Part shown: piece after piece, positions 57,437 to 59,003 of the stretch
Position numbering within the stretch: the stretch's first letter is position 1
Layout of the letters: every line of letters starts with the position of its first letter
Assembly (NCBI GenBank): GCA_945936135.1
Contig: CAMESG010000001.1
Coordinates: forward strand, 194,748-258,747
Source of the DNA: an uncultured Mollicutes bacterium
GTDB lineage: Bacteria > Bacillota_I > Bacilli_A > RFN20 > CAG-826
Reading direction: 5' to 3'
DNA length: 64,000 nt
Translations under genes and position numbers: made by a program
Notes under the pieces: model-generated
Seen by the model: the letters and a program-made list of their open reading frames with translations, nothing else
Told to the model about the DNA's origin: nothing
The model's database searches: none

Positions 57437-57570
57437 ATATTGAAAAGGAAATGTATGGCAAACGTTAACGAGGCCTAAAGGATCCTATAAGTTTTGCTTT
57501 CGTTATAAAGGGGAAGAGAAAGTTCGGCACATCAAAGAAACACCGCGGGATTTTCCGAAAAAACGTTCAA

Positions 57571-58869
57571 TTATATATCTAAGCTATCCTTATTTAACAA
57601 AAAATCAAAAATTCCAATAATTGTTATTCCTTCTTCGGTAATCCATGCTTTCCTGTTCTCTTTCACCACAATTATTTTTTTAAAATTATCCGGAATATTC
57701 AACAATGGTCTTTCTTCTTGTATCGTCTTCTCTCTTGTAGGCAACGACAAAGCGGATTGGACGTAATATTTTTTATTGAATTGGTTGCAAACGAAATTCA
57801 CTTCGATCTGTTTTTTGTCGTATCCTTCTCTTATTGGCACAACTCCGACATCAACATTGTACCCCCGAGAAATTAATTCGTTGTAGATAATGTTCTCCAT
57901 GATGTGGGTTTCTTCTTGCTGATGAAAATTCAGCCTGGAGTTACGAAGTCCAATATCAGAAAAATAATATTTCAATGGTGATTGGATATACTTTTTTCCT
58001 TTAATGTCAAATCTCTCCGATTTATCGATTAAGAACGAATCTTCCAAATACTTTAAATAATTTGAAATCGTATTGATTGATACTTCCTTAATCCCCATGC
58101 TCTCAAAGGTCTTTAGAAGAGTATTGGGATTGGTTAATGAACCAATTGACGACGCGAGAATATTGATGATCGAATCCAAAACGTCGATCCTTTGGACTTT
58201 GTTTCTCTCTACGATATCCCCTAAATACGTTCGATCAAACAATTGCTTCAGATATCTGCTTTTTTCGCTTTCGCTCGGAAAGGATAAAATTCTTGGCATT
58301 CCCCCATAGGTCACATATTGTTCCCACGCATCCTCTTTGCTTCCCTCAAACGCGGAATAGAATTCGCTAAAAGAAAGAGGAAATACGCGAATTTCATCTC
58401 CTCTACCTCTAAACTCTGTAATGATGTCGGATGATAGAAATTTCGAATTGCTGCCGGTTACATAGATATCCAAATTTTCAATATGCAGAAAACCGTTTAG
58501 CACGGACTCGAAATCGCTTACTTTTTGCACTTCATCAAGTATCAAATAATACATTTCATTATCGGTAAGAAGGCTTCTGATATAATCATCCAATACATCG
58601 GGGTTTAAATATTTATTGTTTCTCCTCTCATCCAAATCCAATTTAATGACATGGTTTTCCTTAACTCCCGAATTTAGAAGGTACTCTTTGTAAATTGGGT
58701 CAAGGAGAAATGATTTTCCACATCTTCTCAATCCGGTTACGATCTTAACGAGGCCATTTTCTCTTTTTTCGACTAATTTCTTTAAATATAGATCCCTATC
58801 TATCCTTTTCATTTTTCCCACCACTGAATATTTTTTCCAATATTGGAAATATTTTTCAATGTCAACCAT
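57571..58869 (-). CDS. AAA+ ATPase (AAA_14-like) / DUF4143-like family protein, in second AT-rich island
   Basis: ...LVKIVTGLRRCGKSFLL (Walker A)...YYLILDEVQKV (Walker B)...YVTGSNS... A DUF4143-like C-terminus follows. The gene is strongly AT-rich relative to both flanks. The real start may be the internal MKRIDRD at 58812. Confidence 0.7.
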   Translation of the reverse strand: MVDIEKYFQYWKKYSVVGKMKRIDRDLYLKKLVEKRENGLVKIVTGLRRCGKSFLLDPIYKEYLLNSGVKENHVIKLDLDERRNNKYLNPDVLDDYIRSLLTDNEMYYLILDEVQKVSDFESVLNGFLHIENLDIYVTGSNSKFLSSDIITEFRGRGDEIRVFPLSFSEFYSAFEGSKEDAWEQYVTYGGMPRILSFPSESEKSRYLKQLFDRTYLGDIVERNKVQRIDVLDSIINILASSIGSLTNPNTLLKTFESMGIKEVSINTISNYLKYLEDSFLIDKSERFDIKGKKYIQSPLKYYFSDIGLRNSRLNFHQQEETHIMENIIYNELISRGYNVDVGVVPIREGYDKKQIEVNFVCNQFNKKYYVQSALSLPTREKTIQEERPLLNIPDNFKKIIVVKENRKAWITEEGITIIGIFDFLLNKDSLDI

Positions 58870-59003
58870 CCTTCACACAGCCGAGAAGGCAAATGGCGAT
58901 AGCCCAATGAAGGCGGATATTTTCCATGCCGCAACGGCAGACCTCGTCTCCCTCTTGCGAAAAAAAGGAGCTTCTTCTATTTCGATCCATATAAAAGAAA
59001 GGA

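Follow-up and report, generated by a model that had tools for sequence, protein, structure and literature searches.

An acquired AAA_14-DUF4143 (PDC-S01) single-gene cassette, probably attenuated, between two convergent lipoprotein genes of an uncultured Mollicutes bacterium

Introduction

What is a solitary, AT-rich ATPase gene doing between two lipoprotein genes of a bacterium with a GC content of about 52-55%, and does it still work? The question is raised by a 64,000-nucleotide stretch of DNA (hereafter the window) from an uncultured Mollicutes bacterium (NCBI GenBank assembly GCA_945936135.1, contig CAMESG010000001.1, forward-strand positions 194,748 to 258,747), in which a minus-strand gene at 57571..58812 encodes a protein of the AAA_14 plus DUF4143 family, equivalent to COG1373 and to PDC-S01 of PADLOC. 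An earlier note on this DNA had taken the gene for a candidate one-protein defence or selfish module. We favour, by a modest balance of the evidence, the reading that it is an acquired AAA_14-DUF4143 single-gene cassette from an ATP-controlled, DNA-binding, nuclease-type family engaged in conflicts, and that this copy is probably attenuated.

Results

A foreign gene lies between the terminators of two host genes

The window contains an intact minus-strand open reading frame (ORF) at 57571..58869, which corresponds to 432 amino acids (aa) and which the earlier note had reported as the gene. That frame exists, but its start is more likely internal: because close homologues are all 413 aa long and a Shine-Dalgarno (SD)-like GGTGGG stands just 5′ of ATG 58812, the true gene is most likely 57571..58812 (minus strand, 413 aa). 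A database protein (P0001) of 413 aa is 100% identical, and the 19 additional codons of the longer frame overlap a conserved non-coding upstream element. We therefore annotate the AAA_14-DUF4143 (PADLOC PDC-S01) gene at these shorter coordinates on homologue lengths, the SD sequence and a hidden Markov model (HMM) match given below, and number residues from ATG 58812 except where the 432-aa ORF is named. The composition of the gene is not that of its host. Its GC content is 0.35 overall and 0.34-0.39 along its length, against 0.52-0.60 in the flanks, and GC at third codon positions (GC3) is 0.389, against 0.70-0.79 in four neighbouring host genes, so that both the AT-rich island and the atypical codon usage expected of it are real. 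In a 1-kb GC profile of the whole window, values below 0.44 occur only at 49-51 kb and 57-59 kb, and these minima are the two intact AAA_14/DUF4143 genes.

The flanking genes are convergent and both encode proteins with lipoprotein-type N-termini: 55996..57387 on the plus strand (463 aa) and 59067..61832 on the minus strand (921 aa). Few relatives were found for the 463-aa protein, of which two lie on long contigs, L091 (Logan SRR23925002) and L092 (GCA_963620915.1). L091 is syntenic with window positions 43549-63712 at 65-77% nucleotide identity, and its gene order runs through a hydrogenase operon, Rex, an ABC transporter, a lipoprotein and a large lipoprotein, with DegV further downstream. 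Its 453-aa and 896-aa lipoprotein genes are directly convergent across a 184-bp spacer that holds only two terminators, and L092 has a 110-bp spacer of the same two-terminator design. The AAA gene is absent from this site in both contigs. As two syntenic relatives thus have the lipoprotein genes adjacent with nothing between them, the gene in the window is a horizontally acquired insertion, in agreement with the earlier note; atypical composition and presence or absence at a conserved syntenic site together mark it as a genomic island.

These comparisons also define the borders. The intrinsic terminator of the 463-aa lipoprotein gene (57404..57436, plus strand) has a 10-bp stem with 6 GC pairs followed by a T-run, and that of the 921-aa lipoprotein gene (59014..59045, minus strand) consists of a hairpin and a T-run. 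Equivalent terminator pairs lie 25-60 bp apart in L091 and L092 with no gene between them, and both terminators are part of the flanking convergent genes and not of the island. The earlier placement of the island between two terminators thus holds for position, while the terminators themselves turn out to be the neighbours' own and the right-hand one lies at about 59014-59045 rather than at 59004-59036. From composition and the empty sites, the whole inserted interval between the terminators is 57437..59013 (about 1.58 kb), within which the recognisable part of the acquired cassette, delimited by DNA homology to other species' cassettes at 65-73% identity, is 57563..58865 (minus strand). The remaining 57437-57562 (about 125 bp) and 58866-59013 (about 150 bp) have an intermediate GC content of 0.37-0.55 and no match in either the cassettes of the relatives or the empty sites.

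Contigs of at least six samples, from two assembly pipelines, show identical junctions. The gene is present on all contigs that encode the identical 463-aa protein; no empty site was found among these strains, and the empty sites belong to more distant syntenic relatives. Searches around the window insertion for terminal repeats or a target-site duplication gave only short, chance-level matches. The hallmarks of an insertion sequence or transposon are lacking here: there are no terminal inverted repeats, no duplications and no identical copies in the window.

The protein joins a clamp-loader-like ATPase to a predicted PD-(D/E)xK-fold domain

Both Pfam profiles suggested by the earlier note match above their gathering thresholds: AAA_14 (PF13173) at 3e-32 (111.8 bits, cut-off 27) and, C-terminal to the ATPase at aa 218-367 of the 432-aa ORF, DUF4143 (PF13635) at 4.7e-17 (62.6 bits, cut-off 28.1). 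The proposal of a stand-alone AAA+/DUF4143 protein is thereby confirmed. The PADLOC search gave a full-length match to PDC-S01 model PDLC04787 (1.8e-117), with aa 19-427 of the 432-aa ORF aligned to profile positions 5-409 of 412. NCBIfam holds no model for the protein, and sequence and family-profile searches of the PDB returned P-loop-level matches only, with no solved relative.

We therefore turned to structure prediction. An AlphaFold2 model of the whole protein reached a mean predicted local distance difference test (pLDDT) score of 67, with a good ATPase and C-terminus and a poor region at aa 196-302, and matched the AAA+ modules of clamp loader/RFC, Orc1, RuvB and Apaf-1 (best E about 1e-6). 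The central helical region (aa 200-300; 57913..58215, minus strand) forms the N-terminal part of DUF4143 and is modelled as helices with a short beta pair at a pLDDT below 50. On their own, these central 101 aa match DUF4143 at profile positions 7-97 (4e-13), where the profile is strongest, and from their helix-helix-beta-hairpin pattern of secondary structure they probably form a winged-helix-like DNA-binding module.

The C-terminal domain (aa 296-413; 57574..57927, minus strand) was modelled separately, and its 118 aa gave a pLDDT of 77 and an alpha-beta-beta-beta-alpha-beta topology. Foldseek matched this model to Bax1 (2.6e-4), AF1548, Can2/Card1, McrC, the R2 RLE, Hjc, XisH and R.BspD6I, all of them PD-(D/E)xK proteins (E 2.6e-4 to 5e-2, template-modelling score (TM) about 0.5). 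The model thus indicates that the C-terminus adopts the PD-(D/E)xK core fold, as had been anticipated from DUF4143 membership, and agrees with the 2012 census of the PD-(D/E)xK superfamily, which lists DUF4143/COG1373 as member no. 100 (PMC3424549).

The ATPase motifs are intact and the nuclease-like site is remodelled

Conservation was assessed in two sets of homologues, 119 close ones (76-79% identity) and 104 representatives of the wider subfamily (35-55% identity). The Walker A motif or P-loop, G27-x4-G32-K33-S34 within GLRRCGKS (58705..58734 with flanking residues, minus strand), was located from the subfamily alignment, in which G27 is present in all 104 representatives and G32 and K33 in 103 each. 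The acidic pair of Walker B, D93-E94 in LILDEVQ (58531..58536, minus strand), is conserved in 101 and 94 of the 104 respectively. Both motifs are therefore intact in the window protein and conserved in the family, as the earlier note had read them.

The nuclease-like site presents a different picture. The window protein carries Asn (codon 339; 57796..57798, minus strand) where the EVDF strand has its conserved metal-ligand Asp. In an alignment of homologues, all 119 close ones have Asp at this position; among the wider representatives Asp is found in 92/104 and Asn in 6/104. The canonical (D/E)xK position is occupied by Q-S-A (codons 352-354; 57751..57759, minus strand): three independent alignments place Q352 against the Glu and A354 against the Lys of the E…EVDF…IEVK motif found in the subfamily of a second copy in the window (copy 2, described below). 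The target subfamily as a whole thus has D…QxA where the canonical signature is D…ExK. Since E306 (100 of the 104), E337 (90), D339 (92), Q352 (99), D375 (90) and K379 (87) are highly conserved, the site appears to be remodelled yet under selection.

With N339 and Q352-S-A354 the window protein lacks the PD-(D/E)xK catalytic signature, and its catalytic competence appears doubtful, while its membership of the fold stands. Non-canonical active variants occur in the PD-(D/E)xK superfamily, and a change from Asp to Asn at the metal-ligand position is the usual route to inactivate such enzymes; the D294N variant of Card1 is itself among the Foldseek matches of the C-terminal model. The ATPase-nuclease fusion proposed earlier consequently stands as to fold, whereas its chemistry is not demonstrable with Q352/A354 in place of ExK and N339 in place of Asp.

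Relatives share a sharply bounded cassette across species

The nearest relatives of the protein (77-79% aa identity) come from gut metagenome-assembled genomes (MAGs) labelled Bacillales, Ca. Enteromonas, Mollicutes UMGS482 and Lachnospiraceae, and the next (61-69%) from many rabbit and human gut 'Bacilli' MAGs. In most relatives the GC content of the gene (0.23-0.28) matches that of its flanks (mostly 0.25-0.31), and the nearest relatives have a GC3 of 0.14-0.23. Between the target and its relatives synonymous sites are saturated (pS 0.86), so that dN/dS of the target itself is not computable and only a dN of 0.14 can be stated. Saturated synonymous sites, this dN and a GC3 risen from about 0.2 to 0.39 suggest that the gene was transferred long ago from a low-GC lineage of Bacilli and has since partly ameliorated. 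Housekeeping regions of the window host and of the Ca. Enteromonas and UMGS482 contigs share 67-72% nucleotide identity, and on these nearest DNA matches the host is probably an RF39-like gut bacterium of the Bacilli.

We compared 80 loci from species-representative genomes, all against all, at the DNA level. More than 30 inter-species pairs have 85-97% identical DNA that is limited to the gene with about 50-180 nt before and 2-33 nt after it, giving a shared cassette of about 1.35-1.45 kb with thousands of bases of unrelated flank available on both sides. At the 3′ boundary homology ends inside the stop codon in at least 12 pairs, and the 5′ boundary is the outer edge of the distal of two palindromic elements described below. 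The cassettes of L062 and L074 are 97% identical, and L005:5869-7270 and L006:5869-7270 share 1402 gap-free bases at 93% identity in flanks with a GC content of 0.30 and 0.52, which bears out the earlier suggestion that the family moves between hosts. For the latter pair dN/dS is 0.08 at a dS of 0.28, and the family is under strong purifying selection. Because cross-species identity stops at the upstream palindrome and at the stop codon, the sharply bounded shared DNA points to a minimal mobile cassette. Inspection of 12 junction pairs revealed no common termini, terminal inverted repeats or target duplications.

The surroundings of these cassettes vary. Among the 140 immediate neighbours in the 80 loci, as many as 176 Pfam families are matched and no partner is conserved, and the 25 most frequent neighbour families, which do not exhaust the 140 neighbours, include none of integrase type. 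The commonest neighbour is another PDC-S01 paralogue; the defence-like genes among the 140 are 6 PDC-S01 paralogues, 2 SoFic, 2 RT/DRT and 2 PDC-S04. Homologues were found on 239 plasmid records in PLSDB, 174 of them from Acinetobacter, and on only 19 phage records in INPHARED, mostly unannotated 'Bacteriophage sp.' from human faecal samples. One 2630-bp circular record, L093 (NZ_CP133466.1, Prevotella nigrescens), encodes nothing beyond a PDC-S01-like ATP-binding protein (47% identical) and part of a TaqI-like specificity domain. This record may represent an assembly artefact, a circle that was excised, or part of a locus embedded in a restriction-modification (RM) system, and given the RM specificity fragment and the possible artefact we did not use it as evidence of a replicon or circle.

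Paired palindromic elements bracket the native promoter

Within the 170 nt before the start codon, 34 of 79 loci of relatives carry two near-identical copies of a 25-45-nt element, as against 2 of 790 shuffles, spaced 64-90 nt apart in 33 of the 34 (mode 76-77 nt). A TTGA…TATAAT promoter lies between the two copies, of which the proximal one stops immediately 5′ of the SD sequence. Each element comprises a 6-10 bp outer inverted repeat, an A-tract, an inner palindrome with 5-7 bp arms (for example CCGTAAACGG, TGGCAGAAATGCCA, TGCGGGTACCCGCA, TGTGTATATACACA and GCCAATATTGGC), a second A-tract and the outer complement. Element sequences are wholly different between lineages, whereas the two copies within one locus stay alike. 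They fold as two-stem hairpins, with a mean z of -2.6 on the sense and -2.5 on the antisense strand, and neither the upstream element nor the flanks match an Rfam family.

Both A-tracts lie on the sense strand, which would be unexpected for a simple symmetric operator, and the elements may therefore have a single-stranded role, as RNA or single-stranded DNA; the copy upstream of the promoter argues for a role at the DNA level. The most economical reading of these sequences is regulation, namely tight autorepression of a potentially toxic gene, and recombination is the other. An argument for operator over hairpin from direct versus inverted half-sites (L017 versus L018) was set aside as weak, since the two differ by three substitutions; the strand asymmetry of the A-tracts points the other way.

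The window copy retains the proximal element only, CATTGAAAAATATTTCCAATATTGGAAAAAATATTCAGTG (58822..58861, minus strand), which lies just upstream of the SD sequence and is predicted to fold as a two-stem hairpin (-11.7 kcal/mol, z -2.3). Homology to the relatives stops at its 5′ edge (58860-58865), no TATAAT promoter follows, and a promoter scan found only weak sites, at or below chance. A comparable loss is seen in L007, where a single, hybrid element remains and the promoter unit is gone although the upstream flank is shared with L005; this locus shows how recombination between the two element copies deletes the promoter unit. The first of the two PDC-S01 genes of L007 may also be damaged N-terminally, its ORF beginning only at the P-loop.

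The window copy is probably attenuated

Taken together, the loss of the native promoter and distal palindrome, N339 and a nonsense allele suggest a copy that is probably attenuated or in the course of being lost, and it may be poorly expressed or decaying. The allele, Y318*, is a G>T change on the plus strand at 57859 that turns codon 318 of the minus-strand gene from TAC to TAA in sample ERZ11466799 (L087, position 2216). Only 3 differences were found over 6744 nt, of which this is one, and it removes the nuclease-like domain.

Discussion

Relation to PDC-S01 and a working model

The locus is an ordinary member of a very common family. PDC-S01 was proposed by guilt-by-embedding and listed as untested by Payne et al. 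2024, is described in the literature as an ATPase fused to a PD-(D/E)xK domain, and is reported to rank fourth in frequency among the 'defences' of prokaryotes and first among single loci in rumen MAGs. The suggestion of a one-protein defence candidate is not new: the protein matches PDC-S01 over its full length, and the idea is already published. Embedding among defence genes, the basis of that proposal, is not found at this locus, where two lipoprotein genes and an ABC transporter lie nearby; the single-gene PADLOC call does not require it. Indirect hints of a role in conflict or mobility come from a T. thermophilus homologue that is induced 6.6-fold by plasmid DNA and from the inclusion of COG1373 in a list of genes that gut genera co-share.

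In our working model, insertion placed a single-gene cassette between the terminators of the two convergent lipoprotein genes of the host. Its protein would comprise a clamp-loader/Orc1-like AAA+ ATPase, a central, probably winged-helix region and a C-terminal PD-(D/E)xK-fold domain, and the family would act as an ATP-controlled DNA-binding protein of nuclease type against foreign DNA, in defence or in competition between elements. In the native cassette, a promoter of its own bracketed by two structured palindromes would probably keep expression tightly controlled.

Comparison with known systems places the window copy close to PDC-S01, with which it shares the full-length PDLC04787 match, the AAA_14 and DUF4143 domains and the single gene without conserved partner; it differs in N339, in the absence of the native promoter and distal element, and in not lying within RM, BREX or DISARM. 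Copy 2 and its subfamily (PDLC04786) have the same family membership and architecture and likewise form an AT-rich insertion, but copy 2 is only 22-25% identical, keeps the canonical E…EVDF…IEVK motif and has an upstream region organised otherwise. McrBC also couples an AAA+ NTPase to a PD-(D/E)xK nuclease, and McrC is among the C-terminal structural matches; however, McrBC consists of two polypeptides, with a GTP-specific AAA+ of another clade and an N-terminal reader of modified DNA, and no sequence similarity to the window protein was detected. Among solved structures, Can2/Card1 and archaeal Bax1 match the model of the C-terminal 118 aa best (E 2.6e-4 to 1e-2, TM about 0.5). In Can2/Card1 the nuclease is under the control of CARF and cyclic oligoadenylate and in Bax1 under that of the XPB helicase, both with canonical catalytic residues, and neither is fused to an AAA+ module. 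Clamp loader/RFC and Orc1/Cdc6, the best matches of the N-terminal ATPase (E about 1e-6), similarly place helical, possibly winged-helix DNA-binding parts after the AAA+ module; they have no nuclease domain and another biology, and the sequence relation is limited to the P-loop.

An integron cassette, too, is a minimal one-gene mobile unit with a boundary at a structured imperfect palindrome conserved in shape and not in sequence. Here, however, the palindromes are 5′ of the ORF, in two copies that bracket the cassette's own promoter, whereas attC is 3′ of a promoterless ORF. The GTTRRRY/RYYYAAC cores are not visible by eye in the element sequences, and the cassettes are solitary or in short tandem sets. 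Neither the position of the elements, nor their sequences by eye, nor the 25 most frequent neighbour families therefore identify these units as integron cassettes.

Weighing the explanations

Several observations weigh against an attenuated cassette of a conflict-related nuclease family. The genes next to the relatives are mainly of housekeeping type, and few of them are known defence genes; the one PDC-S01 representative tested in E. coli B failed to protect it from T4, T5 or T7, and the literature searched reports no biochemical activity or phenotype for any family member. The winged-helix assignment concerns a part of the model with a pLDDT below 50, and nuclease activity is uncertain even in relatives with D339, in a subfamily without the canonical ExK. 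As for decay, all 413 codons of the ORF are intact, several samples have the identical protein, most of the 14 lineage-specific changes at conserved positions are conservative, N339 may be a tolerated functional variant (Asn also occurs in 6/104 other representatives), and Y318* comes from a contig with about 3.8x coverage, where a sequencing error is possible.

The intact ORF and ATPase motifs and the full-length PDC-S01 match would equally suit a fully functional one-protein defence, expressed through a weak junction promoter or read-through and cutting invading DNA under ATP control. A nuclease fold related to the defence nucleases McrC and Can2/Card1, purifying selection and horizontal mobility of the family, three members within 64 kb and the plasmid-induced T. 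thermophilus homologue also speak for it. We nevertheless consider it unlikely, with Asn at an Asp invariant in 119 close homologues, a subfamily without ExK, the native promoter and distal element missing, no adjacent defence genes, a nonsense allele in one sample and a tested representative that gave no protection. In more than 30 pairs the shared DNA begins at the distal palindrome's outer edge and ends at the stop codon or 2-33 nt from it. These boundaries raise another explanation, in which the AAA+/winged-helix/PD-(D/E)xK protein mobilises its own 1.4-kb element through the 5′ palindromes and defence is not primary. The conserved two-stem hairpins, different in sequence between lineages and with sense-strand A-tracts on both sides, the absence of a recombinase gene nearby and a nuclease fold that also matches the R2 retrotransposon endonuclease and XisH are consistent with it. 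Against this stand the lack of terminal inverted repeats and target-site duplications at the window insertion and the inspected junctions, the lack of a structured element at the 3′ end, a non-canonical active site in the subfamily, and window copies that are 20-25% identical, with no identical multi-copy proliferation seen within a genome. We know of no precedent for such a transposase, and regard self-mobilisation as decidedly improbable for this locus. As a general account of PDC-S01 genes, the idea that they are minimal selfish mobile elements and not, or not solely, defence effectors, each recognised by its 5′ palindromes folded into single-stranded hairpins with A-rich internal loops and cut and pasted by its own protein or an unnamed host factor, is likewise a long shot; if true, it would explain the family's abundance, its multi-copy and sporadic spread and the negative defence assay.

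Retention of the gene might instead mean that it has become a non-catalytic, domesticated derivative that has kept DNA binding and ATP hydrolysis and acts, for example, in regulation or sensing, with the nuclease domain serving as a module for binding or oligomerisation. This would accommodate D339N in an otherwise well-conserved protein whose lineage-specific changes are mostly conservative, the intact ORF in several samples, and a subfamily-wide loss of ExK that, with newly conserved Q352, D375 and K379, suggests a remodelled site. A composition that is still strongly foreign (GC3 0.39), the lack of a recognisable promoter, the absence of the gene from the closest syntenic relatives and the nonsense allele make it a slim prospect. 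Finally, the window derives from metagenome assemblies, where chimeric joins occur, and the gene might be an assembly chimera or a vertically inherited gene of intrinsically low GC; identical junctions in at least six samples and two pipelines, empty sites in syntenic relatives and nearest relatives in hosts of 25-30% GC that match its composition leave hardly any room for either. We therefore retain, with the modest confidence stated at the outset, the acquired and probably attenuated cassette.

What this locus says about the family matters because PDC-S01 is counted among the most abundant 'defence systems' in bacteria, archaea and rumen and gut microbiomes. As one large subfamily has lost ExK and individual copies also lose the Asp, such counts mix canonical, remodelled (Q-x-A) and probably dead proteins, and if defence censuses are inflated by such cassettes, estimates of a 'core defensome' need revision. 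The sharply bounded cassettes of about 1.4 kb point to a specific mobility mechanism, and the paired, lineage-specific palindromes are a candidate ligand for binding and regulation. Together with the remodelled site, they make the function and spread of PDC-S01 experimentally approachable.

Other family members in the window and at related loci

A family HMM finds exactly three members in the window, as the earlier note had counted them, each in a different context. They are only about 20-25% identical to one another (22-25% between the target and copy 2) and are, by sequence comparison, distant paralogues in different contexts and not duplicates. Copy 2, identified by the family HMM and PADLOC model PDLC04786, occupies 49011..50453, with a probable GTG start at 50309 that gives 432 aa (49011..50309). 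With a GC3 of 0.41 it is an AT-rich insertion that is missing from the syntenic relative L091. An apparent replacement of the copy 2 allele in L002 was rejected, as L002 is 100% identical to the window and only the gene calling differed. The third copy (33030..34314) is a pseudogene split over three frames that hold AAA_14, the N half and the C half of DUF4143, and it shows the end point of decay. Its GC3 of 0.50-0.63 is near that of the host, and it still displays a canonical D…E-F-K motif (EADCV…IEFKL).

Copy 2 lies in a variable region (48400-54150) missing from L091, which lacks both copy 2 and the approximately 5.8 kb that the window has between Rex and the ABC transporter. Also in this region are a lipoprotein-like gene with a Big_2 domain (50916..51536), an IS630/Tc1-type transposase that is truncated and has a partial rve domain (51723..52505) and a pair of hypothetical genes that are paralogues (52582..53157 and 53179..53778). 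In L007:5958-9607 (uncultured Mollicutes UMGS482), two tandem PDC-S01 genes are followed by AAA_21 (AbiEii-like) ATPase fragments; this set directly adjoins the hydrogenase operon, in the neighbourhood that copy 2 occupies in the window, and no Rex gene was seen there on the contig. Because copy 2 is present in the window, a tandem pair in L007 and none in L091, the region beside Rex and the hydrogenase operon is a hotspot for family genes.

In L005, a small terminator-like hairpin, CCCGTTAGGG, followed by a T-run occurs on both sides of the cassette (5700-5730 and 7340-7370) and between tandem paralogues.

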